DNA of 64,000 nucleotides from Candidatus Hydrothermia bacterium (GCA_049719805.1 JBNARF010000002.1:342628-406627), one strand, 5' to 3'; positions 11,254 to 54,631 are shown, numbered from the stretch's first letter. Notes: generated from the sequence alone by a model not told the origin. Program-made: numbers and translations.

Positions 11254-12570
11254 ATGGCTAAATATACTTTTAAGGGGGGAATTCACCCACCTTATAATAA
11301 AGTTACTACATCAAAACCCATTGAGAGGCTTTCGGTGCCTCCTGTTCTTTACATTCCTTTAAGCCAACATACTGGCAAGCCCGCAAAACCCGTAGTTAAA
11401 AGGGGTGATGAAGTTAAGAAGGGACAATTGATTGCAGAGGCAGATGGCTTTATATCCGCTAATATCCATGCTCCCACTTCCGGTAAAATACGCACTATTA
11501 TTGACCATCCTCATCCTGTGCTCCTCTCGAGTAGTAATGCCATTATCATTGAGGCCGATGGAAAAGACGAATGGCTTGAAGAACCTAAAGAAAGGGAGAA
11601 TTGGAGGGACCTCTCTGCAGAAGATATAGTTTCAATCGTAAGAAATGCTGGTATTGTAGGACTTGGTGGAGCCGCCTTTCCCACACACGTTAAGCTTTCT
11701 CCACCTAAGGAGAAACCCATCGATACGGTGATAATTAATGGTGCAGAGTGCGAGCCTTATTTGACGGCTGACGATAGAATTTTGCAGGAAAAAGCGTATG
11801 AGGTACTCTGGGGAGCCTATCTCATTAGAAAGGCAGTAAATGCAAAAAAGGTTTATATAGCTGTCGAGGATAACAAACCCAAAGCCATTGAGAAGGTTAA
11901 AGAAGTTATTGGTGAATTCGTTGACTTCGAGCTAAAAGTGGTAAAAACAAAATATCCTGAAGGTGCTGAAAAACAGCTTATTAAGGCTTTAACGGGCCGG
12001 GAAGTGCCCCGTGGTGGGCTTCCCATGGATGTTGGTTGTCTTGTACAGAATGTACAGACTTCACTTGCTATTTATGAGGCTGTGAGGTTTGGAAAACCCC
12101 TTATCGAACGAGTGGTAACATTATCTGGAGACGGTGCCAAGGGTCCAGGTAACTATCTGGTAAGGATAGGGACGAGATTTGCCGATGTAGTAGAAATGAC
12201 CGGCGGTATGGCTGAGAATGTAGTAAAAGTAATAAATGGTGGGCCAATGATGGGAATTGCTCAGTATACCCTGGAAGTTCCTGTGATAAAGGGTACGTCC
12301 GGAATTCTACTTTTCACGCCCAGGGTAGCGAAGGAGTTTAAAGAGTATAGTTGCATTAGATGTTCAAAATGTGTGGACGTGTGTCCTATGGGACTTTTGC
12401 CCCTTATGCTTGTAGATTATGTAAAAGCTAAAAAATTTGTTGAAGCTAAGGAAAATTACGGGCTTCTGGATTGTATTGAATGTGGTTCATGTGCTTTTGT
12501 TTGTCCCTCTAAAATTAATCATGTGCAGTGGATAAAGTTTGGCAAGCAGGAACTCAGGAGGCTATCATGA
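11254..12570 (+). CDS. rnfC: Rnf electron transport complex subunit C
   Basis: FKGGIHPP N-terminus, GLGGAAFPTHVK, NGAECEPYLTADDR, and two 4Fe-4S motifs (CIRCSKCVDVCP, CIECGSCAFVCP). ATG 11254 lies 7 nt after AAAGGAG; the track starts at TTG 11251. Confidence 0.9.
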   Translation: MAKYTFKGGIHPPYNKVTTSKPIERLSVPPVLYIPLSQHTGKPAKPVVKRGDEVKKGQLIAEADGFISANIHAPTSGKIRTIIDHPHPVLLSSSNAIIIEADGKDEWLEEPKERENWRDLSAEDIVSIVRNAGIVGLGGAAFPTHVKLSPPKEKPIDTVIINGAECEPYLTADDRILQEKAYEVLWGAYLIRKAVNAKKVYIAVEDNKPKAIEKVKEVIGEFVDFELKVVKTKYPEGAEKQLIKALTGREVPRGGLPMDVGCLVQNVQTSLAIYEAVRFGKPLIERVVTLSGDGAKGPGNYLVRIGTRFADVVEMTGGMAENVVKVINGGPMMGIAQYTLEVPVIKGTSGILLFTPRVAKEFKEYSCIRCSKCVDVCPMGLLPLMLVDYVKAKKFVEAKENYGLLDCIECGSCAFVCPSKINHVQWIKFGKQELRRLS

Positions 12571-13520
12571 CGAACAGCTTTATTCTGTCAGTATCTCCCC
12601 ATTTAAGAACAAATGAGAGCGTAAAAAAGGTAATGTGGTTTACAGTTTTTACGCTGGTATTCCCTGCTGCAGGAGCCGTATATTTCTTCGGTTTTTACCC
12701 CCTTCTGGTTATGCTTGTTAGCGCTCTGACGGCGGTATTAGCAGAAGCAGTTACATTAAAACTAAGGGGTAGAGACGTTTCTCAATGCCTTGATGGAAGT
12801 GCTGTAATTACCGGTATTCTTTTAGCTCTCACCTTGCCGCCCAAATATCCCCTCTGGGAAGCTGCTCTTGGTTCTGCTTTTGCCATAGTCTTTGCCAAGC
12901 AATTTTTTGGTGGGATAGGGCAGAATATTTTTAACCCCGCACTTATTGGGAGGGCTTTCCTCATGGCTTCATTCCCTACTGACACCACCACCTGGGTTCC
13001 CACGAGATTTATGAATCCTGATACCTTTACAGGTGCTACACCTTTAGCAACCTTTAAGTTTAGCAAGATTATGACACCTTATAAGGATCTATTCTTTGGA
13101 AATGTTTCCGGGAGTATGGGTGAAACTTCAGCCCTTTTGATTTTGATTGGTGGTCTCATTCTAATCCTCAAAGGTTACGTAGACTGGCGATTACCTTTAT
13201 CTTATATTGTCTCCACTGCTTTCTTTGGTGGAATTCTCTGGCTAATTAATCCAAGTAAATTTCCTGATCCCCTCTTCCACATCTTGGCTGGTGGGCTTAT
13301 GCTGGGAGCTTTTTATATGATTACTGATATGGTAACTTCACCAATTACTCCACGGGGTAGAGTGATCTATGGAATTATCGCTGGCTTTCTCGTGGTACTT
13401 ATAAGGCTTTTCTCGGGGTATCCTGAGGGAGTAATGTTTAGTATTTTGATTTCCAATACTATAAGGCCCTGGATTGATAGAATGGCAAAACCCAGAATTT
13501 TGGGGGAGGTCAGGAAATGA
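12567..13520 (+). CDS. rnfD: Rnf complex subunit D (membrane, FMN-carrying)
   Basis: Polytopic NqrB/RnfD-like protein with SPHL..., FFGGIGQNIFNPAL and MITDMVTSP motifs. Start taken at ATG 12567 (ATGA overlap with the rnfC stop), not the track extension at 12528. Confidence 0.9.
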   Translation: MTNSFILSVSPHLRTNESVKKVMWFTVFTLVFPAAGAVYFFGFYPLLVMLVSALTAVLAEAVTLKLRGRDVSQCLDGSAVITGILLALTLPPKYPLWEAALGSAFAIVFAKQFFGGIGQNIFNPALIGRAFLMASFPTDTTTWVPTRFMNPDTFTGATPLATFKFSKIMTPYKDLFFGNVSGSMGETSALLILIGGLILILKGYVDWRLPLSYIVSTAFFGGILWLINPSKFPDPLFHILAGGLMLGAFYMITDMVTSPITPRGRVIYGIIAGFLVVLIRLFSGYPEGVMFSILISNTIRPWIDRMAKPRILGEVRK

Positions 13521-14491
13521 AAAAAGAGTATCAGATGATAATTGTGCTTACGGCCATAATTGGGTTTGCAGGTGGTATTCTGGCTTATACTTACGTGGCA
13601 ACAAGTAAAGATATCGAGAAAAATACTAATGAGGCAAAGAGAAAGGCCCTTGTAAGCGTTGTCCAGGGTGTCTCCACTTATGATGAATCTAAGATAGATG
13701 ATAACACTTTTATTTTAACTGCAAAAGATTCTGCTGGTAACGTTGTGGGTTATGGGGTGATGTTATCTGGTGGTGGATTCCAGGGACCCATAAAAATTAT
13801 GGTGGGTTTTGATAAGGACGTGAAAAAAGTGCTCGGAATTGAGATACTTGAGAATTCAGAGACTCCAGGTCTTGGAAATAGAATAGTTGAGAACTGGTTC
13901 AAGGAGCAATTTAAGGGTAAGATACCACCGCTTAGTGCTGTGAAAGGGAGAGCTCCTGAAAATGAAAGGGAGATTCAAGCTATAACAGGTGCGACAATAT
14001 CTTCTAAATCGGTTACCAACATCGTTAACAGGGCTCAAGAAGTGTTAAGAAGTTTCCTGAAAGGTGGTGAGCAAACTTCAGAATATGAGAAAGCTGTCCT
14101 TGAATCTTCCAGCAAAATTTTTGGGGAAGAAGCAAAGGTCGAGAAAAAGGGTGAAATTTTCATAATCAGAGACAAATCGGGGGAAATTTTAGGCTATGCT
14201 TGCATTTCTAAAGCTCTGGGATATGAGGATACCATAACAGTGCTTGTATTATCGGATAGCCTTATTTCTAAGGTTATTGATGTAAAGGTAATTAAGGGGG
14301 CAGAATACTTTACCAATGAAAAGAAGATTTCCCCGCTTCTTGACAAGATAAAAGTAAGTAAACCACCCATTACTTTGAAGGAGATTCAAACTGTGACAGG
14401 TGCGACAATTACCCAAGACGCTATCGTTTCAGCTGTAAATAGTGCTTTTGAAAATTTGAAAAAAGGAGTTAATTTAAATGGCATCAAATAA
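13517..14491 (+). CDS. rnfG: Rnf complex subunit G, unusually long, with two FMN_bind-type modules
   Basis: N-terminal TM helix, ETPGLG motif, and two flavinylation-type motifs: ITGATIS (aa 156-162) and VTGATIT (aa 293-299). 324 aa against roughly 200 aa for the RnfG proteins I know. Confidence 0.85.
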   Translation: MKKEYQMIIVLTAIIGFAGGILAYTYVATSKDIEKNTNEAKRKALVSVVQGVSTYDESKIDDNTFILTAKDSAGNVVGYGVMLSGGGFQGPIKIMVGFDKDVKKVLGIEILENSETPGLGNRIVENWFKEQFKGKIPPLSAVKGRAPENEREIQAITGATISSKSVTNIVNRAQEVLRSFLKGGEQTSEYEKAVLESSSKIFGEEAKVEKKGEIFIIRDKSGEILGYACISKALGYEDTITVLVLSDSLISKVIDVKVIKGAEYFTNEKKISPLLDKIKVSKPPITLKEIQTVTGATITQDAIVSAVNSAFENLKKGVNLNGIK

Positions 14492-15083
14492 TAAAAGTTT
14501 AAGTAGCGAATTTTTTAAAGGGTTTTTCAGAGAAAACCCTGTATTAGTTCAGCTTTTGGGGCTCTGCTCGGTACTTGCTGTATCAAATGCGGTGGTAAAT
14601 AGTATATCCATGGGACTCTCGGTACTTTTTGTTCTCTTTTTCTCATCCTTTGTAATTGGGCTAATAAAGGATTTTATACCCAATGAGGTCAGGATACCAT
14701 CATTTATCGTGGTAATTGCGACCTTCGTTACCATAGCAGATCTATTCCTTAAGGCAAAGTTTCCAGATATATCTAAAGCCCTTGGTCCATATATACCTCT
14801 AATAGTTGTTAATTGTATAATCCTTGGAAGGCAGGAAGCTTTTACAAGGAAGAATAAGCTTATTCCTTCTATTATGGATGCCCTGGGAATGAGCATCGGC
14901 TACATAATAGCAATTTTGCTCATGGGCATAATACGAGAAATACTGGGCTTCGGTACTTTACTGGGTTTCAAAATATTGGGTTCCTGGTACAAGCCCATCC
15001 TTGTAATGATTTTGCCCCCTGGTGCCTTCTTAACCCTGGCTATGTTAATTGGAATGATGAATTTTATTACTAAAAAGGAATAG
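14478..15083 (+). CDS. rnfE: Rnf complex subunit E
   Basis: NqrD/RnfE-like: NPVLVQLLGLCSVLAVS, LGPYIPLIVVNCIILGR. Confidence 0.9.
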   Translation: MASNNKSLSSEFFKGFFRENPVLVQLLGLCSVLAVSNAVVNSISMGLSVLFVLFFSSFVIGLIKDFIPNEVRIPSFIVVIATFVTIADLFLKAKFPDISKALGPYIPLIVVNCIILGRQEAFTRKNKLIPSIMDALGMSIGYIIAILLMGIIREILGFGTLLGFKILGSWYKPILVMILPPGAFLTLAMLIGMMNFITKKE

Positions 15084-15092
15084 GAGGAATTT

Positions 15093-15677
15093 ATGTTAAG
15101 GCCTTTAATAATATTCTTTGCCGCATCAATAACGAATAACTTTATTTTGACTTACTTTTTAGGCTTATGTCCTTTCCTTGGAGTTTCTGCAAGGGTTTCA
15201 TCAGCCATTGGGATGGGTTTCGCAGCCACCTTTGTTATGACTATGACAGCAATTATTACTAATCTCCTGGATCATCTCGTCTTGAGGCCTTTACACCTGG
15301 ACTTCTTGCAAATTATCGTATTTATCTTTGTCATCGCCGTTCTTGTTCAGTTTGTGGAGATGGTTATTAAGAAAACTTCACCAGCTTTATACAAGGCACT
15401 GGGTATATTTCTTCCCCTTATTACTACCAATTGTATCGTGTTAGGTCTTGCACTTCTTGGCTCTATGAGAAATTACAACTTAATTGAGAATACCTTTTTC
15501 GGATTTGGTGCCGGTGTTGGCTTTACTATAGCACTCCTCCTTATAGCGGGAATAAGGGAAGAACTTGAAGTGAGGGATGTACCTAAGGCACTTAGGGGTG
15601 CTCCGATTACCCTTATAATTGCAGGTCTTATGGCTTTTGCTTTTATGGGATTTTCTGGTATTATCTCTTTGCAATAG
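15093..15677 (+). CDS. rnfA: Rnf complex subunit A
   Basis: NqrE/RnfA-like: NNFILTYFLGLCPFLGVS, LGIFLPLITTNCIVLG. Confidence 0.9.
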   Translation: MLRPLIIFFAASITNNFILTYFLGLCPFLGVSARVSSAIGMGFAATFVMTMTAIITNLLDHLVLRPLHLDFLQIIVFIFVIAVLVQFVEMVIKKTSPALYKALGIFLPLITTNCIVLGLALLGSMRNYNLIENTFFGFGAGVGFTIALLLIAGIREELEVRDVPKALRGAPITLIIAGLMAFAFMGFSGIISLQ

Positions 15678-15687
15678 GAGGAATGAT

Positions 15688-16512
15688 ATGTCTACTCTTA
15701 TCGCAAGTATTGTTTTGTCTTTAGGGCTGGGACTCTTTTTTGCAATATTTCTTGTGATATCTTATAAGAAGCTTGCTGTGCATGAAGATCCCAGGGTTGA
15801 GCTTATTCTTGAGAGGCTTCCGGGTGCGAACTGTGGTGCCTGTGGATACCCTGGCTGTGCGGGCTATGCGGAAGCTCTTGCTTCGGGGAAAGAGACTAAC
15901 GTTGCAAAATGTGCTCCAGGTGGTCAGGATGTTGCCAATCAAGTGGCCCATATTCTTGGGCTCGATGCTGTGAGCGTTGAGAAAAAAGTAGCCAAATTGA
16001 TGTGCCGTGGTTCCGTGGAAAATGCCGTAAGAAGGGCAAACTATAATGGGATATCTTCATGTAGAGTTGCTGATTTTACCCTTAAAGGGGATAAAGGATG
16101 TGTATATGGTTGTCTCGGTTTGGGGGATTGTGTAGCAGCTTGTAAATTTGGTGCGATGTACATGGGAGAAGATGGTCTTCCTCACATCATAGAGGAAAAG
16201 TGCACTGCTTGTGGTAAATGTGTTGAAGCATGTCCCAGGGGACTTCTAGAATTGGTTCCAGTAACCCGGAAAGTTTTCGTTTTCTGCAAAAGTTTAGATA
16301 GGGGACCGGTGGCTAAAAGTTATTGCAAAGTAGCCTGCATCGGTTGTGGACTCTGTGTAAAAGCTGCACCTGAAGGAAGTATGAAGCTTGAAAATAATCT
16401 TGCAATAATCATAGATCCAGAAAGGGTTGATGAAAAAGCTGAGGATATAATAAAACCCTGTCCCACTGGTGCTATAACTCTTGATGAAAAGTTTGCAACT
16501 GTGAAATCATGA
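15688..16512 (+). CDS. rnfB: Rnf complex subunit B (polyferredoxin)
   Basis: N-terminal TM helix, LPGANCGACGYPGCAGYAEAL cluster, and several CxxCxxCxxxCP motifs. ATG 15688 follows AGGAGG (15676-15681). The track extension from 15619 overlaps rnfA. Confidence 0.9.
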   Translation: MSTLIASIVLSLGLGLFFAIFLVISYKKLAVHEDPRVELILERLPGANCGACGYPGCAGYAEALASGKETNVAKCAPGGQDVANQVAHILGLDAVSVEKKVAKLMCRGSVENAVRRANYNGISSCRVADFTLKGDKGCVYGCLGLGDCVAACKFGAMYMGEDGLPHIIEEKCTACGKCVEACPRGLLELVPVTRKVFVFCKSLDRGPVAKSYCKVACIGCGLCVKAAPEGSMKLENNLAIIIDPERVDEKAEDIIKPCPTGAITLDEKFATVKS

Positions 16513-16925
16513 GTGAAAAAATAAAAGGAATTATAGTTTCGAAGAAAAGTGAAAAGACATATCTGGTTAAGATACTGAAAGAAGGTGGTTGTGCTTCATG
16601 TACACTATCTAAGTTCTGTAGCCTTGGTAAATCAGAGGATTCTGAAAACTTAATTGAAGTGACCGGCGAGAATCTAAAGGTAGGTGACCTGGTAAGTATT
16701 GAGGAAAGAACTTCAGGGATTATGATTGCTAGTTTTCTCATTTTTATTGTGCCTATTATTTTTTTTATAGTTGGATATTACGTCGGGAAATGCATAGGCT
16801 TGTCAGAACCGCTAAGAACGGTATGTGGCTTTTTCCTTCTCAGTGTTTATATGTTAATTCTTCATTTTCTTGACAGGAAACTCAAAGAAATACTTTTCAG
16901 TTTTAAGATAAAGCGAGTTCTTTAA
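16509..16925 (+). CDS. RseC/MucC-like (SoxR-reducing-system type) small membrane protein
   Basis: N-terminal beta region with a Cys pair (GGCASCTLSKFC), then two TM helices. ATGA overlap with rnfB, the usual genomic partner of this family. Confidence 0.65.
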   Translation: MSEKIKGIIVSKKSEKTYLVKILKEGGCASCTLSKFCSLGKSEDSENLIEVTGENLKVGDLVSIEERTSGIMIASFLIFIVPIIFFIVGYYVGKCIGLSEPLRTVCGFFLLSVYMLILHFLDRKLKEILFSFKIKRVL

Positions 16926-19900
16926 GGTCACTATAAAGGAGTTGGGATAGCTTGTCTGTGTAGAATTGGGAAACATCTACTTTTTTGTTTTTTAGCTCCT
17001 CAGCAAGCATTCTGTACATTACGACCTCACAGTATTTATTTTCTGTTTTTTGAATGAGATCAGCAGTTTCACTTATGGTTTTTTCTGCTTTTTCCAACTC
17101 ATGTGATATTAATAATCCCCTTATCTCAGCTATTCTGAGGAGAAGTTTTTGTTTTAAGTTCAGCCTTGATTCATTATTCTTAAGCTCTACCAGTTGTTTT
17201 TGATGGAACTTTCCAAAAATCAGTTCGAAAAGCAGAATGTCGAAATATTGTTTCATAAGATGACTGCTTTTTGCGCGTTGCAAGATGGATTCAAGATCTA
17301 TTTCTACTTGACTTTTCGACAACAGGGACAACGCATACATCGATGTGGAAATCGCCAGTTCGCTTAGAAGGTCTTGTAGGGCAACGGATTCTTTTAGAAG
17401 AGGTAAGAGAATCCCGATGTACTCTTCGGGATTTTGAGAAAATACAACAAGTGCCTCACTTATTGATGCTATAGCGATCTTCTTTGTGCGAGGGTCTTTG
17501 CACGTAGAAATATGTTTTGCAATCCTTTTTAAACTGGTTATATCACCCAGCATTGTATAAACTGGTATTAGGTAACTTGCTGCTCTCTCGAAAGCAAATG
17601 GATAATTTTCTTTTTGTGAAGTATCGAGAATTTCCTCTAATTTTTCAGCATGATACCTGTAGTCTCCAAGGTACGCTTTAACACCATGAAATATAGCTTT
17701 GAAGGCTAAAATGTCTTTTGTAAGTCCCAATTCTTCACAGTTTTCGATCGCTCTCTCAAGATAATTGATAGCCAGGGTATACTCACCGTAGTTAACATAA
17801 ATCATTGCCAGGTTGTAATATGAATGATGTAGTAGGTGTTTTAAATTTTCTCTTCGTATAATCTCTAAGGCTTTTTCATGTGTGATTCTCGCACGTTCCA
17901 GATCCTGTACTGCGTACTGAAGGGTCGCATAATTATGCATAATGGCAGCAAGATAGTCCGGTTTATCTGTAAGTCTTGCATGGTAAATTGCTGATTCTAA
18001 ATATGAAAGTGCTTTATCATATTTTCTAAGTTGTCTGTAGCATTTACCCAGATTTGCGTAAGCTTTTGCTAATATTTCGTGATTTTCTTCTTCTTTTTGA
18101 AGCTCCGGGATTTCCTCCAGAATAAGAATTGCTTCTGTTAGATTTTTTTGAAAATCCAGGTAGTAGAGAGCTTTGAATATTAAAGCGTTCGAGAGAATAT
18201 CTTTATCGCCCAGTTCATTTGCAAGTTTTTCGATCTCTTGAACATTTAGTAAAAGATCCGTCTGATATTGTTTTTCATGCTGAATCCATGCAATATCTAA
18301 GCGAATTAATGCTTCTTGATATTTTTCAGCGTATTTTTGTGCAAGTTCGAGGGCCTGATTGAGTTTCTGCATACTTTCGTGGTACTCGCCTTCATATCTG
18401 AGACATAGTGCCCAATTTCTTAGTAAAGAAATTTTCTCAGCAATGGTTAATCTATGTTCAGCAATGTTAAAAATTCTCTGAATGTGAATTATAGCCTTTT
18501 TGAAATTTCTTTGCTTAATTTCATTTTTAACGAGAAGTTCGAGATAGGGAATAGCTTTGTTTTCCATCCCGCTTTCGATATAATGTTCGTACAAAACATT
18601 TGGGCTGAGTCTGTATGTTTCCTCAGGATTCTCTTCCAGGGCTCTAACTATTTTGTAATGCATGCTGATTCTTTTTTCTTTAGGAATCTGTGAAATAATT
18701 ATTTCCCTGATAAAGGGGCTTGTGAACCTGTAGAGGTTATAAGGGATAATTTCCTCTATGTAACCATTTCTGGTGAGATTCTCAAAAATTTCAAGTAGCT
18801 GATTAGGAGGGTAATTAGTTATTGCCGAAATTATAGATGTTGTAAAGTCCATATTATATAGGGCGCAATAATCTATAACTTCCTTTTCTTGTGGCGTAAG
18901 GCCTGCCAATTCTTCGACCAGAGGAAGGAGGAAGTTTTCTGTATCAACGTAATAAGAATCTGTAATAAGGAAGTGGTCTTCATGGGGGATGATTTTTCTA
19001 GAAATCAAGAGTGTATTTAACAGTTTATTAATGTAAAAAGGTCTTCCCCCTGTTTTAACCATAACCCAGTCAATGAATTCATCAGGTGGGTCAACTCGCA
19101 AAAGCTGCCATAATATAGTTTTGACTTCTTCTCTTTTTAAGGGTGTTATGTCAAAGAAATGTAGCTCCCCGTATACTCCTTTTAGGGCTTCTTCGAGGAA
19201 ATTTTTCGATCTCTTTGAAATGATAAAAGAGATATTTCTTGTTAATTCATCTTTAAGTATGTTTACTAGTGTTTTAGTACATTTTTGAGTCATTAAATGC
19301 CCATTGTCAATTGCAATTACAGTGTGTTTAGGTTCGAGTTTTTTCAAAATCTCCAGGGTTATAGAGAGCAATTTTAATTCACTTATTGTCAAAGTGACTT
19401 CATCTTGTACAAGCTCCGGGAGAATAGCGCCTACTACTCTTTTCTGGTTCTCGTCCAGTTCTTTAACAAATTCAGGTGTCAAAATTTCTCTAAGGAGTGC
19501 TTTAATAAGCGGAAATGGTGATAATAGATCTTTCTCTTCAATAGTGACTTTGATGAATTCGATGTCCAGTAATTTTGAGATTTTTCCTATTTCTTCAATT
19601 ATTCTGGTAATTCCGATACCCTTCATGCCCCTTAATATCGCAATAAATCTTCTGTTCGAATTTCTAAAATCGTTTAATAGTTTGGTGAAAGCGTTAATCT
19701 CTGTTTCTCTTCCAATAATACGGAGGTTTGAGAGTGAAAGATCAAGTATTTCTTCTTTAGGTTCTGATTTGGTAACAATTTTACCTCTTCCCATTTTTTT
19801 GCTGTTTAAGGCTCGTTCGTCGGCTGTTTTTAATAGTTCATCTGCTGTCAAACCATCTATGGGGAATTGAGATATCCCCATGCTGATGGATATCTTTAGA

Positions 19901-20262
19901 TTTTTTGTCGGTCCGTAGTTCTGAGACTCAAGCTGTTCTTTTACTCTTTGTGCAATTTTTACCGCGTCATCCAGAGGTACATCAGGTAAGATTATTACGA
20001 ACTCGTCTCCTCCATATCTGAATATCAGGTCAGATTCTCTAAGAAAGTTCCTCATATTTTCTGCAAATTGTCTAAGAACCTCATCGCCCACCTGGTGTCC
20101 AAAATTGTCGTTTATCATTTTGAAGAAATCCATGTCCACGAAGACAAGACAGAGTGGTAAACCTTTTCGCTTCGCTCTTGAGATTTCTTCGTTTAGCCTG
20201 AAAAAGAAGTAGTTCCTGTGATAAAGACCTGTTAATGGATCGTGCAGATAAATCTCAGCCAT
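16903..20262 (-). CDS. diguanylate cyclase (N-terminal GGDEF) fused to an AAA_16/STAND-like module with a degenerate P-loop and a long C-terminal TPR array
   Basis: DPLTGLYHRNYF at aa 8, RESD I-site 5 residues before GGDEF (aa 84-88), IIGRETE...GMKGIGIT (aa 212-219), GGRPFYINKL, then about 600 aa of TPR-like helical repeats. Confidence 0.85.
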   Translation of the reverse strand: MAEIYLHDPLTGLYHRNYFFFRLNEEISRAKRKGLPLCLVFVDMDFFKMINDNFGHQVGDEVLRQFAENMRNFLRESDLIFRYGGDEFVIILPDVPLDDAVKIAQRVKEQLESQNYGPTKNLKISISMGISQFPIDGLTADELLKTADERALNSKKMGRGKIVTKSEPKEEILDLSLSNLRIIGRETEINAFTKLLNDFRNSNRRFIAILRGMKGIGITRIIEEIGKISKLLDIEFIKVTIEEKDLLSPFPLIKALLREILTPEFVKELDENQKRVVGAILPELVQDEVTLTISELKLLSITLEILKKLEPKHTVIAIDNGHLMTQKCTKTLVNILKDELTRNISFIISKRSKNFLEEALKGVYGELHFFDITPLKREEVKTILWQLLRVDPPDEFIDWVMVKTGGRPFYINKLLNTLLISRKIIPHEDHFLITDSYYVDTENFLLPLVEELAGLTPQEKEVIDYCALYNMDFTTSIISAITNYPPNQLLEIFENLTRNGYIEEIIPYNLYRFTSPFIREIIISQIPKEKRISMHYKIVRALEENPEETYRLSPNVLYEHYIESGMENKAIPYLELLVKNEIKQRNFKKAIIHIQRIFNIAEHRLTIAEKISLLRNWALCLRYEGEYHESMQKLNQALELAQKYAEKYQEALIRLDIAWIQHEKQYQTDLLLNVQEIEKLANELGDKDILSNALIFKALYYLDFQKNLTEAILILEEIPELQKEEENHEILAKAYANLGKCYRQLRKYDKALSYLESAIYHARLTDKPDYLAAIMHNYATLQYAVQDLERARITHEKALEIIRRENLKHLLHHSYYNLAMIYVNYGEYTLAINYLERAIENCEELGLTKDILAFKAIFHGVKAYLGDYRYHAEKLEEILDTSQKENYPFAFERAASYLIPVYTMLGDITSLKRIAKHISTCKDPRTKKIAIASISEALVVFSQNPEEYIGILLPLLKESVALQDLLSELAISTSMYALSLLSKSQVEIDLESILQRAKSSHLMKQYFDILLFELIFGKFHQKQLVELKNNESRLNLKQKLLLRIAEIRGLLISHELEKAEKTISETADLIQKTENKYCEVVMYRMLAEELKNKKVDVSQFYTDKLSQLLYSDLKELALS

Positions 20263-20279
20263 AACAACTTATTAGAATT

Positions 20280-20308
20280 ATTCTATTGTCATTTTTGGGG
20301 AAAGTCAA
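20280..20308 (-). promoter_or_regulatory. candidate promoter of the GGDEF-STAND-TPR gene
   Basis: On the minus strand, TTGACT (20308-20303), 17 nt, TAGAAT (20285-20280). The ATG lies 17 nt downstream with no SD. Confidence 0.45.
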
Positions 20309-20319
20309 TTCTTGTCAAT

Positions 20320-20607
20320 ATGGTTTATAATTACAGTGTGTCAATTAAAATTAAGATAAGAGTAACGCCCGGCGCAAAGAAATACGGTATTGAATTTGAT
20401 GAAAAAAAAGATTTTTTTATTGTTTCGGTAAAAGAACCTGCGACGGATAATCTTGCAAACAGAGCTTTGGTGGAAATGTTTTCACGTAGGCTGGGTTTAC
20501 CAAAGGAGAAAGTAAAGATTATTAAAGGCTTCAGAGAGCCCCGCAAAATTCTGGAAATTCTGGAAGAGCTGGATTTTTCCGAGATCAAAAGGAGGCTTCT
20601 TGGATGA
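20320..20607 (+). CDS. DUF167 (YggU-like) protein
   Basis: IKIRVTPGAKK...LANRALVEMFSRRLGLPKEKVKIIKG matches the YggU family pattern. Start taken at ATG 20320. The track GTG 20242 would overlap the divergent gene. Confidence 0.7.
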   Translation: MVYNYSVSIKIKIRVTPGAKKYGIEFDEKKDFFIVSVKEPATDNLANRALVEMFSRRLGLPKEKVKIIKGFREPRKILEILEELDFSEIKRRLLG

Positions 20608-21146
20608 CTTTCCTCATTAATATTTTTTTAGTTTTCTCTATTCAAGTAGTTGATTCTGTCGTCCTCTATAGGTTTAGAAGCGCGACTTTATCGCCTTTTT
20701 CTGACTTCACTTTCAAAGGCTTATCTTATTCTGCAAACACGGAAGTCATACTCACCGGTTCCCTAATTTACTGGTCATTCTCTGAAAGAAGGGATTTAAA
20801 TTTAATGAAATCCTATACTGCGGGACTTATATCCTCTTCGATTATAACTCAGTCGTTGAAATTTGTCGTGGGCAGGACAAGACCCGATGGTGAAAATTCC
20901 CGGACGAATTCTTCTTTTCCATCCGGTCATTCCGCAGTAGCTTTTTACGTTGCAGGGTATTTTAGCGGTATTTACCCTAAGTACAGAATTCCTCTCTACA
21001 CCTGGGCCTGTGGTGTTGCCCTCTCTCGGGTATATCTGAAAAGGCATTGGCCTTCGGATGTGATAGCCGGAGCAATAATAGGATGGGGAACTGCGAAGTT
21101 TTTTTACCGTCATAAAGACTGGTTTAGCAAAGTTTCTATTTTTTAA
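20604..21146 (+). CDS. PAP2-family membrane phosphatase
   Basis: Three PAP2 motifs: KFVVGRTRP, PSGHS, SRVYLKRHWPSDV. AAGGAGG SD; ATGA overlap with the DUF167 gene. Confidence 0.85.
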   Translation: MTFLINIFLVFSIQVVDSVVLYRFRSATLSPFSDFTFKGLSYSANTEVILTGSLIYWSFSERRDLNLMKSYTAGLISSSIITQSLKFVVGRTRPDGENSRTNSSFPSGHSAVAFYVAGYFSGIYPKYRIPLYTWACGVALSRVYLKRHWPSDVIAGAIIGWGTAKFFYRHKDWFSKVSIF

Positions 21147-21495
21147 AAAAAAGCTGAATCCCTATTAGGATTAAAAATATAGCAAAGGCCTTTCTAAGAG
21201 TATTAGGATCGATACGTTGTGCTAATGTTCCACCCAAAAGCCCCCCTAAAAGTAGGCCAAAAGCTATAGTGAGGCCCAATTTTAGATCGCAGTTTCCTGC
21301 TTTATAGTATTGGATAAATGCTAAAATTCCAACAGGTAAAAGTAGAGCAGCAAGCGATGTACCCTGGGCCTTGTGCTGGGGCATTTTGAAGAAGTAAATT
21401 AATATAGGAGTTATGACCGTGGCACCGCCCACTCCAAAAAATCCACTTATGATACCTGCAATAATTCCAATCAAGATTCCATAAAGAATCATCAT
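21136..21495 (-). CDS. half-size TauE/SafE (DUF81) family anion-exporter-like membrane protein
   Basis: 119 aa with about 4 TM helices. GFFGVGGATVITPIL and AQGTSLAA resemble TauE motifs. Confidence 0.65.
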   Translation of the reverse strand: MMILYGILIGIIAGIISGFFGVGGATVITPILIYFFKMPQHKAQGTSLAALLLPVGILAFIQYYKAGNCDLKLGLTIAFGLLLGGLLGGTLAQRIDPNTLRKAFAIFLILIGIQLFFKK

Positions 21496-21536
21496 ATCAA
21501 TGGCCTTATAATAAAGTTTTGGGATTGTAATTTAAA

Positions 21537-24500
21537 ATGATAAAACCGGAAAGGAGAAAAGTCGCAGTACTTTTCGCTGATATAAAGGGTTTTACGACCC
21601 TTTCGGAGTTTTTGGATCCCGAAGATTTGCAAGAGTTAGTAGATACGATATTTAGAGATTTCAGATATATTATTGAAAGTAATGGGGGATATTTAGATAA
21701 GATTATTGGAGACGCAATAATGGCGGTGTTTGGAGTACCATCCTCCAAGGGGGACGATACCAGGAGAGCTGTTTTGACCGCTTTACAGATGCAGGACACT
21801 CTCCGAAGAATAAATGAGGAGAAGAAGATTGATATTAAACTTAGAATAGGAATTAATTATGGTGAAGTTCTATGGTCTTCCATTGCTGGTGAAAAACCTA
21901 CTGTGATTGGAGATACCGTAAATGTAGCGCAAAGGGTGGAGGAGTTAGTGGAACCAGGTAGAGTTTTCGTTACAGAGTCAATTTACCAACTGGAGTACAG
22001 AAATTTTTATTTTGTTGAAGTTGGTCTTTTTAAGCTAAGAGGGCGGGATGAACCGGTTAAGGTCTTTGAAGTATTGAGCGAGAAAATACATGTCAATGAG
22101 TTTTCCATAAGGGGAAGATTTGTTACACCATTTACTGGTAGGGTCTTAGAGATGGAAGATCTATTAAGTTGGTTTAAATTCATAATGGAGAATCCAAAGA
22201 TATACTCTTTAATTTTGTGGGGGGAAGCCGGTATTGGAAAGACGCGTTTTTCCTCTGAGTTCAATAATGTTATTAACGACAATTTTAAAGATTTAAAAAC
22301 ATTTTTAGTGAAGTGTGATCCTGTGAAGCAAAGGCCATTTTACGTGCTTAAAGCTCTAATGGGGTTTTTGCTGGAAGAGATGTTTGGCAAAGAATATGCA
22401 CTACCGAAGGTTATAGACGTTTTTGTAAATGACTTTGGGATTTTAGAGGTGGAAGCGGAAATTCTCGCGAGGAGAATAGAACTCTTTTTGAAGGGAGAAT
22501 TAACTTTAACACAGTCTGATATTTTATTGGAATTTATATCCCAGATCAAAGTTATTTTAGAAAATTTTGCCAGGAATAGAAGAGGAGTTGTAATTTTTAT
22601 AGACGATTCACAATATGCTGATTCTGAAACTCTTGAATTCTTTAGTAGACTCAAAAAGGAAGAGTTCGATACCCTTATTCTCTTATTTTTCTCTTCAAGG
22701 GAGAAATTAATGTTTCTTGATTTTGACAAAGAGATCCAGCTTTCAGGTCTTGGTGAGGATTTCATTAGAGAGGTATGTGTTACGATCCTGGGAGTTGAGA
22801 AAGAGAATATATCCAGGGATTTTATATCCTGGATAGAGGCCAAAACCAGAGGCAATCCTTATTTTGTTGAGGAACTTGTGTATTATCTTAAAACTAAAGA
22901 CCTTCTGGACTTAAACCCTCTTCGTTTAAAATCTGAGGATGTTAGCGTGCCAGAATCCGTTTCCGGGGTGCTTCTGAGTTTAGTAGATGAGTTGCAAGAA
23001 GATGTTAGAGAGGTGATAAAAACTGCATCGGTGGTCGGAAAGAATTTCTGGAAGAATTTTCTCGAAAGAATATTGAGACGGAGTATTGAGTATGAACTTT
23101 CAATTCTTGTAAAAGAGGGTTTAATTGTTCCTCAGATTCAGTCCTACCTGAAGGATGATGAAGAATATACCTTCAGGAACGACCTTTTGAGAGAAAGTGT
23201 TTATTCGCTTCTAACGAAAAAGGAAAAAGAGAATCTCCACAAAATAGTTGCTGAAGAATTGGAAAGGATTACCGAAAAAGATGAGCACTTGCTTTATCTT
23301 ACTGCATGCAATTTCGACAAGGCTGCCAACCGAGAAAAAGCTCATTATTATTATGAATTAGCCGGGGATAAGGCGTTTTTAAAAGGATACTATTCATATG
23401 CTCTAAAGGCTTATGAAGCCATAGAACCAAATGAGGAAATTTTCTATAAAATAGCACAGTGTCTGGAAGGGCTCGGTGAATTTGAGAAGTCCAAAGAAAT
23501 AATCCTGTGCAATTTAGAGAGGCTTGAGGAAAACTCTTTGTTGAGAACAAAATTCGAAATTCTTTTGTCGGGCATCCTGGAAAAAGAACATAAGTTTCAG
23601 GAAGCTTTTAATTTCCTTGAGAGGGCATCAAATTCAGAGGATCCTGATTTAAGAGCTTATGCTATTTATAAAAAAGCATGGGTCTACTTCCGCATGGGAG
23701 ATTACGAGAAGGCAATGGAATTTGCTCATGCAAGTATGAAAATCATAGAAGATTTTGGGTTAAGTTCACGGGATGCCATCAAAACATTGGGGGCTTGTTT
23801 CACATTGCTTGGAATAATAAATCAGTCAAAGGGAGATGAGAAAAATCTGATGGATGCTCTTGAATATTATGAGAAAGCAAGGATTCTCTTTGAAGAAATA
23901 GGCGAGGTAATTTCACAGGCCAAAATTCTTATTAATATTAGTCAAATTCTTCTGGCTTTACAAAAATATACGGAAGCTGAAAGTTACCTTCAAGAATCTT
24001 TTGAGGTGGTCAAAAAATCTGGTAGTAGATTTCTAATGGCTGTTGTTTTAAATAATTTAGGCAGGGTTTACTACAACTCGAGGAAACATGTTGAGAAGGC
24101 AAGAGAATATTATCATGAAGCCTATAATATCTTTCGAAGTCTAAATTTGCAAGATTATTGTATTGACACTGGATTTAATCTGGCCGGATTTTTAATAGAG
24201 CAGGGCGAATATGATAAGGCACAAGAAATACTAGATAATATTTCAAAGAATGCACATGAACTTAATCAGTATAGGCGTGGGCTTTTCTATATACTGGGTG
24301 CCTTACTTTTCTTCAGGAGTGGGCTATATGATCAGGCTTTGTCTTATTTTGAGAAAGCGCAAAGTATATACGAAAGTTTAAGTAGTAAGGACAGGATATT
24401 TCAGGTAAAAACTTATCTTGGAGCTATAGCATACCTCAGGGGCGACGAAGGTTCTGCAATAAGTTATGTACTGGATGCTCTAAATTTCCTGACTGAGGCA

Positions 24501-24860
24501 GATGTAAAGATTCCGCGCGTTGTTGACTCATTGATTGTGAACGGATTAGTCCAGTTTTTATGCCGAAGAAAGATAGAATTTCCTGAATTTGTGGATATTG
24601 AAGCATTTAGAGAAGAAGTTCGCTATCATGCCATGGACATCAAACTTTCCTGGACCGTTCTTCTGAAATTCACGAAAAATAAAGGTATATCAGAATTAGG
24701 AGATTTATTTACCAGAGAGCAATTAAAAGACCTTCATGTCTCTCAGAATTTTCCGTTTTTTGAGGAAGCGCAGGATTTATCTGGATTTCTTAAACTCCTC
24801 GATTCATGGAACGCCGTTTTGCTGAAAAAGTTAATCCTTGCTATAAACCGTTTGACTTAG
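21537..24860 (+). CDS. class III adenylate/guanylate cyclase (N-terminal) fused to an AAA_16/STAND ATPase and a C-terminal TPR array
   Basis: VAVLFADIKGFT, DKIIGDAIMAVFG and GDTVNVAQR are cyclase catalytic motifs. Intact Walker A GEAGIGKT (22221-22244) and Walker B VIFIDDSQYAD. RGNPYFVEEL, then TPR-like repeats. Confidence 0.85.
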   Translation: MIKPERRKVAVLFADIKGFTTLSEFLDPEDLQELVDTIFRDFRYIIESNGGYLDKIIGDAIMAVFGVPSSKGDDTRRAVLTALQMQDTLRRINEEKKIDIKLRIGINYGEVLWSSIAGEKPTVIGDTVNVAQRVEELVEPGRVFVTESIYQLEYRNFYFVEVGLFKLRGRDEPVKVFEVLSEKIHVNEFSIRGRFVTPFTGRVLEMEDLLSWFKFIMENPKIYSLILWGEAGIGKTRFSSEFNNVINDNFKDLKTFLVKCDPVKQRPFYVLKALMGFLLEEMFGKEYALPKVIDVFVNDFGILEVEAEILARRIELFLKGELTLTQSDILLEFISQIKVILENFARNRRGVVIFIDDSQYADSETLEFFSRLKKEEFDTLILLFFSSREKLMFLDFDKEIQLSGLGEDFIREVCVTILGVEKENISRDFISWIEAKTRGNPYFVEELVYYLKTKDLLDLNPLRLKSEDVSVPESVSGVLLSLVDELQEDVREVIKTASVVGKNFWKNFLERILRRSIEYELSILVKEGLIVPQIQSYLKDDEEYTFRNDLLRESVYSLLTKKEKENLHKIVAEELERITEKDEHLLYLTACNFDKAANREKAHYYYELAGDKAFLKGYYSYALKAYEAIEPNEEIFYKIAQCLEGLGEFEKSKEIILCNLERLEENSLLRTKFEILLSGILEKEHKFQEAFNFLERASNSEDPDLRAYAIYKKAWVYFRMGDYEKAMEFAHASMKIIEDFGLSSRDAIKTLGACFTLLGIINQSKGDEKNLMDALEYYEKARILFEEIGEVISQAKILINISQILLALQKYTEAESYLQESFEVVKKSGSRFLMAVVLNNLGRVYYNSRKHVEKAREYYHEAYNIFRSLNLQDYCIDTGFNLAGFLIEQGEYDKAQEILDNISKNAHELNQYRRGLFYILGALLFFRSGLYDQALSYFEKAQSIYESLSSKDRIFQVKTYLGAIAYLRGDEGSAISYVLDALNFLTEADVKIPRVVDSLIVNGLVQFLCRRKIEFPEFVDIEAFREEVRYHAMDIKLSWTVLLKFTKNKGISELGDLFTREQLKDLHVSQNFPFFEEAQDLSGFLKLLDSWNAVLLKKLILAINRLT

Positions 24861-24873
24861 TAACTTTTACAAT

Positions 24874-24902
24874 TTGACTATAGCTCAAGGTTAATATATA
24901 AT
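24874..24902 (+). promoter_or_regulatory. candidate promoter of the lipoprotein gene
   Basis: TTGACT (24874-24879), 17 nt, TATAAT (24897-24902), then AGGGAGG SD 7 nt before ATG 24923. Confidence 0.5.
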
Positions 24903-24922
24903 TTCCTAAGGGAGGTGACGTG

Positions 24923-25855
24923 ATGAAAAGGTTAATAATGTTGATGATGTTTTTTATATTTGTCCTATCCTTTTCATGTAAAAGGCCACAAAGTTATGAG
25001 GACGAAGCTGTAACTGCGGTGGGTGAAATTTCGGACGTTAATTCTGATGCTGATTCCAGTGAGGCTCAAGTTCAACTGGCTAAATTGCCTGAACCTGAAG
25101 GTATTCCCATTCTGGTTGGTATTGACAAGTCATTCTGGATTAAAGACCCCACAGATCCAACTCCATTATTACACATGGTTAACCTTTACACCAACCTTTA
25201 TTTAAGAAGCTCTTCCAGCTTTGGTGAATATTACTATGACACTTTGTATCGAACATGGGCGATGACTTCTCCAGATTTTCAAGGTGTAATACTTAACTGG
25301 ACAAATTCATCGGATTCTTATAAACTCATTTTCAAGGTTGAAAGGTATCAGGAGGTCTCTCAATATTTGCATGTAATAAAAGGTGGGATCGATTTCGTAA
25401 AAAACTCCACTGATACTTTGTATTCTTCAACTTTTGATTTAAATACCGAAACTTCTACTCTTAACCTTGTCTACAGTATACTGGATGTACTTACCGCCAA
25501 TGTAAGTGCTGTGCGTTCTGCAAAGTTTACACCATTTAATGGGGTTATAAACGGTGTAGTGGTGGGAAGAAACGGGAAATCCACTTTAATTGTAGATACC
25601 GTTAAATCAGACGATACCAGGAGAGTATCCGTCAGATTTGTGAGGTTAGGAATTGTTTTTGATATTAGAGCAAATGTTTCAGCCGCAAGTGCAGCCACAA
25701 ATGCACCCAGATACAGAGACATTTCCGGTGACTTTTATGCCAATGGGGCTCGTATAGGTAATGTTTCTGGTAGAAAATATGAATATGATACGCCCGAGCA
25801 CAAGAGCTTTTTACAGATTGAATTAAACTCTGGAAGGATAATCAGAATCTGGTAA
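24923..25855 (+). CDS. hypothetical lipoprotein with no family I recognise
   Basis: Signal peptide with lipobox LSFSC, then an acidic linker, then a Ser/Thr/Asn/Val-rich region that is probably beta-rich. Has its own promoter and SD. Confidence 0.6.
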   Translation: MKRLIMLMMFFIFVLSFSCKRPQSYEDEAVTAVGEISDVNSDADSSEAQVQLAKLPEPEGIPILVGIDKSFWIKDPTDPTPLLHMVNLYTNLYLRSSSSFGEYYYDTLYRTWAMTSPDFQGVILNWTNSSDSYKLIFKVERYQEVSQYLHVIKGGIDFVKNSTDTLYSSTFDLNTETSTLNLVYSILDVLTANVSAVRSAKFTPFNGVINGVVVGRNGKSTLIVDTVKSDDTRRVSVRFVRLGIVFDIRANVSAASAATNAPRYRDISGDFYANGARIGNVSGRKYEYDTPEHKSFLQIELNSGRIIRIW

Positions 25856-25870
25856 AATAAGAGTTGAAAA

Positions 25871-49349: not shown

Positions 49350-50630
49350 ATGCAGAGGGAACCAACCACACCAAGGATTGGTGTGGGTAGGGTAGGGCCT
49401 GAAGGAGCTGGTACAGAAAGGCCTATTATCGTAACGGGCATGGCAACAGGTATTTCTCAGGACCCCTCCCCATGGAAGGCAGGTGTCCAGGCCGGGAAAG
49501 GAGCTCTCGATAAACTCGGGAAATTAAAGCCGGATTTCGCTCTTGTTTTTGTCACTGGGAATTACGAGTTAGACCTGGTGGTTAAGGGTGTTTTGCAGTC
49601 TATAGGTAAAGATGTTCCCGTGGTGGGGGTTAAGACCCTGGGTGTTCTTTTTAACGAAAAGCAGGTTATTAATTCAGGTGTGCTCGTTGGCGTCATCAAA
49701 AGCGATACATACAAAATTGTGCATTCCTTTGGCAAGAACGTTCATCAGGGTTTGCACTCTGCTCTCGAATCCGCCTGTATTCCTGTTTTGGAGCAGTTGA
49801 GAGCAAGAAAAGGAGAGGGATATGAATATTTGAATCTATTCCTGATTTTAGACTCATATGTTAATGGAGATATTCTTGTCTCTGAAGTTTCTCGTATAGT
49901 AGATGGGTATGACCCGGGTATATCCTTTTACGGTGGAATTTTAGATTTTGAAGAAATATCAAAAGAATGTGCACTAAATACTGGCACCGAGACTTTAAAT
50001 GGTGGAATTCTTTGTGTTGGATTTTACTCCAAAGTTCCACCTGCTTTAGGGTATGGCCACGGGCTTCATCCATTGGTTCCCAAAAGGGCTACCAAAGTTG
50101 GGGGTAATGTAATCTATCATTTTGATAATAGACCCGCATTTGAGGTCTGGAAGGAGTTCCTTGTTAAGAAAGGCATACCCGAGGCTGATATAATTAAGAA
50201 TCCTGCTCAGTACCTGGGGATGTATCAGTTCGGCGTCCCTGATCCTAATAATCCAAAGTACCCTAAGGTAAGGATAGCAGTGGGTATAACCAGGGAAGGT
50301 GGAATTAAACTGGCGGGAGATGTACCTGAGAATTCAACAGTGTGGTTTATGGAAGCCCGTAAAGAAAGAATGATGGAAGCTGTTAGTCAGGGTATTGATG
50401 ACGCTTTTTCAAAAACAGACCAAAGGAAACCCCTTGGTTCCATTGTATTAGAAAGCTTACACAGGTTTGCTTCTTTGGGAAGCGAGTTTTACAGTGAAGT
50501 TAGTGCTTTTCAGAGAAAGATTGCCTTACCTCTTATAGGTTTTACAACCTTTGGGGAGTTTTTGCGACCACAGCCCGAATATAAATGGTTCCATAATTCT
50601 TCCTTTACGATTCAAATTCTTACGGAGTGA
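49350..50630 (+). CDS. FIST-domain sensory protein
   Basis: PDFALVFVTGNY...PVVGVKTLGV (FIST_N-like) and IGFTTFGEF (FIST_C-like). N-terminal ~30 aa uncertain. Confidence 0.7.
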   Translation: MQREPTTPRIGVGRVGPEGAGTERPIIVTGMATGISQDPSPWKAGVQAGKGALDKLGKLKPDFALVFVTGNYELDLVVKGVLQSIGKDVPVVGVKTLGVLFNEKQVINSGVLVGVIKSDTYKIVHSFGKNVHQGLHSALESACIPVLEQLRARKGEGYEYLNLFLILDSYVNGDILVSEVSRIVDGYDPGISFYGGILDFEEISKECALNTGTETLNGGILCVGFYSKVPPALGYGHGLHPLVPKRATKVGGNVIYHFDNRPAFEVWKEFLVKKGIPEADIIKNPAQYLGMYQFGVPDPNNPKYPKVRIAVGITREGGIKLAGDVPENSTVWFMEARKERMMEAVSQGIDDAFSKTDQRKPLGSIVLESLHRFASLGSEFYSEVSAFQRKIALPLIGFTTFGEFLRPQPEYKWFHNSSFTIQILTE

Positions 50631-50639
50631 TTTTGCTGG

Positions 50640-52022: not shown

Positions 52023-52038
52023 TTAAGGAGGTGTGATT

Positions 52039-53502: not shown

Positions 53503-53548
53503 AATTTCGCTATAATAGCTTTATACTTTCTCTTGGGGGAGTTATAAG

Positions 53549-54169: not shown

Positions 54170-54261
54170 TAAAACTCCTTTTCTGTTTAAACTTTTAAAA
54201 ATCCTAAAAACCTAAATATTGGGAAAGTTGGGCAAATTTAAGTTAAATTATTAAATACAAA

Positions 54262-54630: not shown

Positions 54631-54631
54631 T

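Follow-up and report, generated by a model that had tools for sequence, protein, structure and literature searches.

What does it mean that a small bacterial genome encodes, as near neighbors facing away from each other, two giant proteins that share a STAND-TPR body and differ in the second-messenger synthase at their N terminus? The question is raised by a stretch of 64,000 nucleotides from a Candidatus Hydrothermia bacterium (GCA_049719805.1, JBNARF010000002.1:342628-406627; here referred to as the window, with positions counted from its first base). A first-pass annotation, made from the DNA sequence alone, had described there two large open reading frames (ORFs) with products of 1119 and 1107 amino acids, and both lie exactly where it had placed them (Table 1). 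The product of ORF A joins a GGDEF domain, and that of ORF B a class III cyclase domain, to a STAND NTPase module and a long array of TPR-like repeats. The evidence described below favors, with a probability of roughly 65%, the reading that A and B are separately evolved, vertically inherited and ordinary STAND-gated second-messenger synthases of the MalT/AAA_16 class, without a role in defense.

Adenylate cyclase (AC)-STAND-TPR proteins are among the commonest large signaling proteins of bacteria, the gating of a cyclase by a STAND module has hardly been studied, and GGDEF-STAND-TPR proteins are apparently undescribed. At this locus, a single small genome provides the natural contrast between a canonical and presumably STAND-gated cyclase and a relative that lacks the Walker A Lys throughout its clade. 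Such a comparison could show whether nucleotide exchange is needed for the oligomerization-driven activation of dimer-dependent enzymes.

Catalytic heads of A and B

The N-terminal domain of A scores far above the threshold of the GGDEF family model TIGR00254 (169 bits against a cutoff of 37.4 bits). It carries the motifs DPLTG, DxDFFKxxND and KxGRG, as well as an RESD I-site located five residues upstream of GGDEF, and all of these are invariant in nine orthologs. The same holds, at identities of 45 to 91%, for the individual active-site residues, namely, the metal ligand D43, the guanine-binding residues N51 and D60, the I-site R75-E-S-D78 and the signature G84-G-D-E-F88. A structural model of the domain superposes on the GGDEF structures 4urg and 4urs of T. 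maritima (Foldseek; template modeling score [TM score], 0.91 to 0.93; root mean square deviation [rmsd], 1.4 to 1.8 Å). Since the Asn/Asp pair of GGDEF enzymes is guanine specific, c-di-GMP is the expected and likely product of A.

The class III cyclase domain of B is similarly complete. The metal-binding residues D15 and D59, the substrate-binding residues K55 and T122 and the transition-state residues N129 and R133 do not vary among eight orthologs that share 43 to 84% identity. T122 directly precedes the sequence V-I-G-D-T-V-N and thereby lies where the mammalian AC C2 domain has its substrate Asp, within Y-D-I-W-G-N-T-V-N; this placement was anchored on the GDTVN motif, since HMMER left a gap there. 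Class IIIb adenylate cyclases, among them CyaC and CyaB, characteristically have a Lys/Thr substrate pair. The model of the head superposes best on CyaB of P. aeruginosa (3r5g; TM score, 0.88; rmsd, 1.5 Å) and on CyaC of Spirulina (1wc0), with TM scores ranging from 0.83 to 0.88. Judged by these motifs and this fold, the product of B is likely to be cAMP.

Thus, both heads look catalytically competent, and the GGDEF and RESD motifs and the class III catalytic residues that had been read from the window recur unchanged across the orthologs. The first-pass annotation was also right that each head sits at the extreme N terminus with no sensor upstream of it. Regulation must therefore be exerted through the NTPase/TPR part or by partner proteins.

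A common chassis in two separate families

Behind the heads, A and B had been described as sharing one STAND-TPR chassis, with a GRE motif and a P-loop in each. The homology is clear. BLASTP aligns the two proteins with 22% identity over 673 amino acids (E = 3e-7), and a comparison of their ortholog profiles with hhalign gives a probability of 99.7% (E = 8e-26) over 694 collinear columns at 20% identity, which begin at the GRE motif and run across the NTPase module and the arm into the TPR repeats. Two of the motifs do not hold up, as the P-loop of A has lost its Lys and the GRE equivalent in the window's B reads FTGRVLE, while most B orthologs have GRE.

AlphaFold2 (AF2) models of both proteins (predicted local distance difference test [pLDDT], 88.2 for A and 87.9 for B) contain a β-α nucleotide-binding domain (NBD), a helical domain (HD), a winged-helix domain (WHD) and about 30 repeat helices. 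The TPR solenoids proposed earlier are modeled as repeat helices, and the C-terminal region of A is all-helical with a pLDDT mostly above 90. The best PDB match to either model is the STAND-TPR protein PH0952 (6mfv; Foldseek E = 1.5e-14 for A and 2.9e-16 for B), whose alignments cover about 800 columns at a sequence identity to A and B of just 15%. PH0952, MalT and AfsR share with A and B the order NBD-HD-WHD-arm-TPR; their effectors are DNA-binding domains, whereas those of A and B are nucleotide cyclases, and A differs further in the missing Walker A Lys. A sequence search of the PDB with both family profiles gave matches to nothing but the heads and generic TPR proteins, so that the STAND module was reached by fold search alone.

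Within the nucleotide-binding oligomerization domain (NOD, comprising NBD, HD and WHD), A contains the GRE motif, a Walker B sequence I-D-N (318-320), a sensor-1-like R351, a GxP motif (GRP, 406-408) and a conserved WHD His535. The columns of GxP and of the WHD His (H535 in A and H568 in B) vary little or not at all among 45 sequences, and this His would correspond to the phosphate-contacting WHD His of PH0952. In terms of Pfam, the AAA_16 match of B (residues 199 to 375) exceeds the cutoff with 37.8 bits, whereas that of A (residues 182 to 329, followed by TPR matches) remains under the gathering score, with 27 bits against 32.6 bits.

The first-pass annotation had regarded A and B as paralogs and proposed a pairwise alignment and a tree of the NTPase module as a check on recent duplication. 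We built a neighbor-joining (NJ) tree of the NOD module from 51 sequences and 416 columns with 100 bootstraps. Support was 100 for the A clade, 98 for the A clade together with the protein P0241, 99 for the B clade and 99 for the B clade together with its AC-STAND relatives. None of the 100 bootstraps joined A and B as sisters, their NOD modules are about 19 to 20% identical, and the A clade sits on a long branch amid GGDEF-type chassis. When the chassis of A (residues 171 to 1119, without the GGDEF domain) was searched against 1.84 billion representative proteins, its own cluster came first, then P0241 (27% identity, E = 5e-80), the nearest relative of A and itself from Ca. Hydrothermota, and then a long tail. 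The best 150 of the 13368 matches included about 27 clusters (at 50% identity) with an N-terminal GGDEF domain, and the B clade was absent from them. By these comparisons, the A module is best placed with N-terminal-GGDEF STAND proteins and the B module with the AC-AAA_16-TPR family. Recent paralogy of A and B was rejected on the grounds of a module identity of about 20%, the lack of any sister bootstrap and this division into effector-specific families.

B belongs, as a routine member, to a very large and known family of class III adenylate cyclase-AAA_16-TPR proteins. Among the scored candidates, 2684 homologs reached an E value of ≤1e-5, and those listed almost all combine Guanylate_cyc, AAA_16 and TPR, under names such as "class 3 adenylate cyclase/TPR repeat protein" and "predicted ATPase/class 3 adenylate cyclase." The model TIGR03903 ("TOMM system kinase/cyclase fusion") aligns with residues 24 to 581 of B (E = 1e-45), at 156 bits against a cutoff of 706 bits. 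Rv0386, which has an unusual Gln/Asn substrate pair in place of the Lys/Thr of B, as well as Rv1358 and Rv2488c of M. tuberculosis, resemble B in that the cyclase is followed by a STAND NTPase of the AAA_16 type, whose Walker A/B and GxP motifs are canonical, and then by helical repeats. B differs from these mycobacterial proteins, whose AC-ATPase-LuxR architecture has been described (bioRxiv 10.1101/2024.03.06.583649), in having no C-terminal LuxR helix-turn-helix, and from the TIGR03903 proteins in having no N-terminal kinase.

The relatives of A are metagenomic proteins with the domain orders GGDEF-AAA_16-TPR and GGDEF-(AAA_16-like)-NB-ARC-TPR (e.g., P0009, P0010, P0241-P0383 and P0011-P0027). 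They share with A the domain order, an intact RxxD and GGDEF and the grouping of the chassis; the 26 that were compared keep GK[TS] in the P-loop, where the A clade has Ile or Leu. Full-length or partial relatives occur in Ca. Aegiribacteria, Ca. Stahlbacteria, Polyangiaceae, Longimicrobiaceae, Bacillota, Rubrivivax and Meiothermus, and the N-terminal-GGDEF STAND proteins carry no annotation beyond "diguanylate cyclase (GGDEF)-like protein." A search of the accessible literature combining GGDEF with STAND, NB-ARC or AAA_16 found no paper on this architecture, and Kaur et al. (2020) mention GGDEF only within vWA-MoxR conflict systems, which have a different architecture. We assign A to an uncharacterized GGDEF-STAND-TPR family, within which its own clade has lost the Walker A Lys. 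As a separate observation, the proteins P0011-P0027, about 1200 to 1330 amino acids long, have a second nucleotide-binding module, an NB-ARC, between the AAA_16-like module and the TPR repeats.

Loss of the Walker A lysine in the A clade

The B clade has a canonical Walker A motif, GEAG[IV]GKTR, and a Walker B motif of the form hhhDD. All nine sequences of the A clade instead read G-x-[KR]-G-x-G-[IL]-[TS]-R, lacking the Lys of GxxxxGK[ST]. Their Walker B motif is I-D-N (I-N-N in one ortholog); D-N at this place also occurs in many relatives whose Walker A is intact and is therefore not by itself proof of inactivity. All 26 of the other N-terminal-GGDEF STAND relatives compared keep GxxGxGK[TS], including the nearest one, P0241 (GDRGCGKTR, with VDD as its Walker B), so that the loss of Lys is a derived trait of the A clade.

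The Walker A Lys is essentially universal among active P-loop NTPases. The NOD of A has most likely been kept as a structural or regulatory unit without ATPase activity, and A is probably an ATPase-dead and possibly nucleotide-independent scaffold or switch, to be controlled mainly through its TPR region and by feedback inhibition. An alternative is that the NOD of A still works as a nucleotide switch, ATP gated like that of B, with the Lys or Arg at P-loop position 3 or some other residue replacing the lost Lys. Position 3 is indeed basic in all nine of the Lys-less sequences, the rest of the pocket is kept (P-loop Thr219, Walker B Asp319, R351, G406-R-P408 and His535), and purifying selection on the NBD-HD region is strong, with a ratio of nonsynonymous to synonymous substitution rates (dN/dS, or ω) of 0.07. 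However, position 3 is already Arg in the Lys-bearing P0241 and Lys in P0010; a basic residue there thus predates the loss and does not compensate for it. The long branch of the A clade after the loss also fits relaxed or changed constraint. Together with the near universality of the Lys in active enzymes, this makes a working ATP switch in A unlikely.

Synteny and selection

The gene order rnfCDGEAB-rseC-A-DUF167-PAP2-(TauE)-B-orf311-4HBT-...-guaB is found in five further genomes or contigs (L001, GCA_017880035.1; L002; L003, GCA_900175155.1; L004; and L010), in which the identities of A and B range from 91 and 84% down to 47 and 43%. A protein identical to B over its whole sequence (100%) is encoded in GCA_049722865.1. 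The arrangement seen in the window is therefore retained in relatives, but only to a certain depth. In a deeper Hydrothermota lineage (L007 and L090), the positional ortholog of A, A' (P0241/P0395), has an intact P-loop, still abuts rseC-rnf and still faces DUF167-PAP2, with namZ inserted and with the genes for ribosomal protein S15 and PNPase after PAP2. The 10 kb around A' contain no B-like gene. P0136, a B-like protein with 35% identity, has no A-like neighbor. A profile search of genome contigs with A, which was swamped by generic GGDEF patterns, yielded one close ortholog (L010) and ten loci that match beyond the GGDEF domain, with the match covering most of A at four of them (L011, L012, L018 and L030) and extending partway into the NTPase module at the other six. 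Beside these ten distant GGDEF-STAND loci, no separate B-like (cyclase-STAND) gene was present within the flanks of up to 10 kb. Taken together, the A' loci without B, P0136 without A and the distant loci without a cyclase-STAND gene show that the adjacency of A and B is specific to one clade.

It follows from the deeper lineage that DUF167 and PAP2 are old neighbors of A, next to which B was juxtaposed later. The first-pass annotation had correctly listed DUF167, PAP2 and a half-size TauE gene in the 1.3 kb between A and B, but its idea that they form an insert has to be given up. A may be viewed as a naturally P-loop-less STAND protein, maintained by strong purifying selection ever since the Walker A Lys disappeared from its lineage, an event that would date to about the time when B became its neighbor.

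Both genes are under strong purifying selection, with approximate dN/dS values of 0.08 for A and 0.10 for B, below 0.17 for every domain and between 0.05 and 0.08 for the TPR regions. In the comparison with the closest genome, L001, A is 91% and B 84% identical, while the genes to the right are 99 to 100% identical. Fast evolution or positive selection on A and B was considered as an explanation and rejected, since dS rises just as abruptly across this block, to which rnf also belongs: it amounts to 0.2 to 0.8 from rnf through orf311 (about 12500-25860) and to about 0.01 from the 4HBT gene (25870) onward. This step at about 25.86 kb points to a boundary of homologous recombination or genome mosaicism or to a chimeric metagenome assembly.

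A and B are neighbors through lineage-specific synteny; they are not the outcome of a recent duplication and form neither an operon nor a defense island. The adjacency of A to rseC-rnf is older and persists in the deep Hydrothermota lineage, even though the A proteins are only about 27% identical and the other neighbors have been rearranged. Behind it may stand a functional connection to Rnf or to redox status, or no more than a gene order that has been preserved, and we take it as a lead for the input of A and nothing more.

A and B as a possible functional pair

In plants, some NLR immune receptors work in pairs encoded head to head, in which a sensor with a dispensable or degenerate P-loop acts with a P-loop-dependent helper. 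A and B are likewise divergent STAND genes with one degenerate and one intact P-loop. By analogy, the P-loop-dead A might hetero-oligomerize with the competent B, such that one input sensed by the TPR repeats would set c-di-GMP and cAMP jointly. Such a pairing would agree with the finding that every genome or contig with a Lys-less A has a divergent B within 1.3 kb, while no B lies nearby in the one lineage whose A' was seen to keep an intact P-loop. It would also agree with the homology of the two chassis over their 694 aligned columns and with the similar divergence of A and B among the relatives (47 versus 48%, 47 versus 43% and 50 versus 45% identity, respectively).

However, the correlation between Lys loss and the presence of B amounts to a single evolutionary event, and adjacency carries little information in a region that is collinear as a whole. 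The spacer between A and B is 1274 bp long and holds three unrelated genes (DUF167, PAP2 and TauE by Pfam). A is read leftward, DUF167-PAP2 rightward, TauE leftward and B rightward, which leaves two promoter regions in the spacer, none of them common to A and B; the two genes are separate transcription units. Mixed oligomers are made less likely by NOD modules that are only distantly similar and do not form sister clades. The plant proteins, moreover, belong to an unrelated NTPase clade. We therefore consider a functional A-B pair distinctly improbable and retain the reading of two independent synthases.

Signaling or defense

The layout of A and B had also been likened to that of Avs and other antiviral STAND proteins, with an alarm function left open. 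An anti-phage alarm would have the TPR repeats recognize a phage protein in the manner of Avs, the head produce a nucleotide signal as in Pycsar or CBASS, and this signal activate a killing effector. The effector-NTPase-repeat order is formally that of Avs, the model of A aligns with Avs3 (8dgc; Foldseek E = 1.2e-9), and the cyclase domain of B shares the class III fold of PycC and matches the PycC models of PADLOC (best E = 4.3e-20). The likeness in layout stands, but the alarm function does not find support in the remaining evidence. PH0952, a STAND protein of the transcription factor type, fits both models better than Avs3. PADLOC returned no match for A, and its hits for B were confined to the PycC models, at the level of the domain, and to a single generic TPR model (PDLC01169, E = 2.8e-8); none of its Avs or other STAND-NTPase defense models matched A or B.

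The context of the genes argues in the same direction. No effector gene (TIR, transmembrane or cyclic nucleotide [cNMP] binding) is adjacent, and the cNMP-binding and transmembrane or TIR effector that is paired with the cyclase in Pycsar is absent beside B, whose neighbors are the divergent TauE gene and an ORF that is lipoprotein-like and without a Pfam match. Around the locus lie rnf, rseC, sucD, nadC, tldD and guaB. A and B keep a fixed core-genome position in collinear order down to 43% identity, whereas defense systems are typically patchy, and the low dN/dS of the TPR "sensor" is the opposite of an arms-race signature. Finally, c-di-GMP and cAMP, the products predicted from the motifs, are common housekeeping messengers. 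On this evidence, we regard an anti-phage alarm as very improbable, and the locus cautions that an effector-STAND-repeat layout by itself is no sign of immune function.

Proposed mechanism

GGDEF domains and class III cyclases both require two catalytic domains for activity, i.e., they act as dimers, which are head to tail in class III, and the active-like dimer structures 4urg and 1wc0 are among the structural matches to the heads. In the STAND cycle, a ligand at the repeat sensor leads to exchange of ADP for ATP and to oligomerization (PMC6468293, PMC4381067 and PMC10936776). If A and B are ordinary STAND-gated synthases, a ligand on the TPR sensor of B would relieve autoinhibition, and the NOD would then swap ADP for ATP and oligomerize. 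Oligomerization would in turn pair the N-terminal cyclase domains, with cAMP being made as a result. A might follow the same logic, in that its dimer-dependent GGDEF head would produce c-di-GMP under product feedback through the RxxD I-site; in the absence of the Walker A Lys, it would have to rely on TPR-mediated interactions and on this feedback. Between the head and the NOD of A lies a linker of about 15 to 20 residues (pLDDT of 56 to 66 at residues 160 to 180), and a head carried N terminal to the NOD on such a low-confidence linker would fit activation by induced proximity.

Several points weigh against the reading of A and B as ordinary, separately evolved synthases. A Pfam scan of most ORFs of the window found neither PilZ nor a CRP or other cNMP-binding receptor, and an Rfam search of the window found no GEMM c-di-GMP riboswitch, so that the downstream pathway is not visible there. 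Support is weak deep in the NJ tree, with only 28 of 100 bootstraps for the split between GGDEF-type and cyclase-type chassis, and we therefore limit the phylogenetic claim to A and B not being sisters. The dN/dS values are approximate because dS between the compared genomes is high (0.5 to 0.8). Lastly, the residues that A retains around its P-loop, including the basic position 3, might permit residual nucleotide binding.

A possible component of c-di-GMP turnover is encoded 9.6 kb downstream of B (34456-36207, plus strand). This protein of 583 amino acids combines GAF with HD_5/HD, has the motifs LLHDLGK and HHEKFDGSGYP and is a candidate HD-GYP-type c-di-GMP phosphodiesterase; it is shorter than the products of 619 to 639 amino acids in the relatives.

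Locus layout and neighboring genes

The window is a core-chromosome segment with a G+C content of about 39%. Its genes include those for ribosomal proteins, rpoA, a 2-oxoacid:ferredoxin oxidoreductase, the rnfCDGEAB-rseC cluster, sucD and nadC, as well as tldD, guaB, a clpB-like gene, polA and four tRNAs. The source names of the homologs lead to candidate division WOR-3 or "Candidatus Hydrothermota (Hydrothermia)," and the host of A and B is a small-genome bacterium of this lineage.

Table 1. Coordinates of ORFs A and B, their domains and the genes between them (residues refer to the protein, positions to the window)
Feature	Residues	Position	Strand	Remarks
ORF A		16903-20262	minus	1119 aa; GGDEF + STAND (AAA_16-type) NOD with degenerate Walker A + TPR/helical repeats
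A, GGDEF domain	6-160	19783-20247	minus	Pfam E 4.5e-45; TIGR00254 E 5e-50
A, NOD (NBD-HD-WHD)	181-545	18628-19722	minus	From secondary-structure order of the model, conserved columns and hhalign versus B
A, degenerate Walker A	212-220	19603-19629	minus	GMKGIGITR; Lys replaced by Ile
A, arm + ~30 TPR-like repeat helices	546-1119	16906-18627	minus	Pfam TPR_12, TPR_1, TPR_MalT; AF2 model
DUF167 (YggU-like) gene		20320-20607	plus	Divergent from A, 57 bp to the A start codon
PAP2-family lipid phosphatase gene		20604-21146	plus	Between A and B
Half-size TauE/SafE membrane protein gene		21136-21495	minus	119 aa; divergent from B, 41 bp apart
ORF B		21537-24860	plus	1107 aa; class III adenylate cyclase + canonical STAND (AAA_16) NOD + TPR
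B, class III cyclase domain	5-173	21549-22055	plus	Pfam Guanylate_cyc E 4.4e-33
B, NOD	199-580	22131-23276	plus	Walker B F-I-D-D (354-357), R388, GNP (439-441), His568
B, canonical Walker A	229-237	22221-22247	plus	GEAGIGKTR
B, arm + TPR repeats	581-1107	23277-24857	plus	Pfam; AF2 model

For the DUF167 gene, the ATG at 20320 is probably the true start rather than the GTG at 20242, and we saw no evidence of a functional link between DUF167 and A. The TauE protein covers only positions 129 to 237 of the profile, i.e., the C-terminal half or repeat of the family model, and no second half lies near it. The half-size gene is kept at the same size in three relatives and went undetected in two (L003 and L010). 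At its other end, A overlaps the 3' end of the convergent rseC gene by 23 nucleotides (16903-16925; compare 13402-13405 in L090).

The sequence of A and B has a G+C content of 35 to 36% (18001-20000 and 22001-24000), which is 3 to 5 points lower than the 39 to 42% of the flanking housekeeping genes. As synteny is conserved, we do not read this as a sign of foreign origin; it probably reflects the composition of the repeats, which are rich in Lys, Glu, Ile, Asn and Leu.

Directly downstream of B, orf311 (24920-25855, plus strand) is present in all relatives with 40 to 89% identity. It has no Pfam match, its N terminus (MKRLIMLMMFFIFVLSFSC) resembles a lipoprotein signal, and it has a strong promoter-like site of its own (TTGACT-17-TATAAT, 24874-24902).

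Elsewhere in the window, a cluster at 49350-55786 encodes a FIST-domain protein, a histidine kinase, a response regulator containing DUF4388 (PatA_N) and a small GTPase of the Ras/Arf-like type; the gene for a PilT/PilB-like T2SSE ATPase comes next. In another lineage (L008), the B-like cyclase P0136 comes directly after a similar cluster, composed of a histidine kinase, a sigma-54 response regulator and a REC-PatA_N-Roadblock protein.

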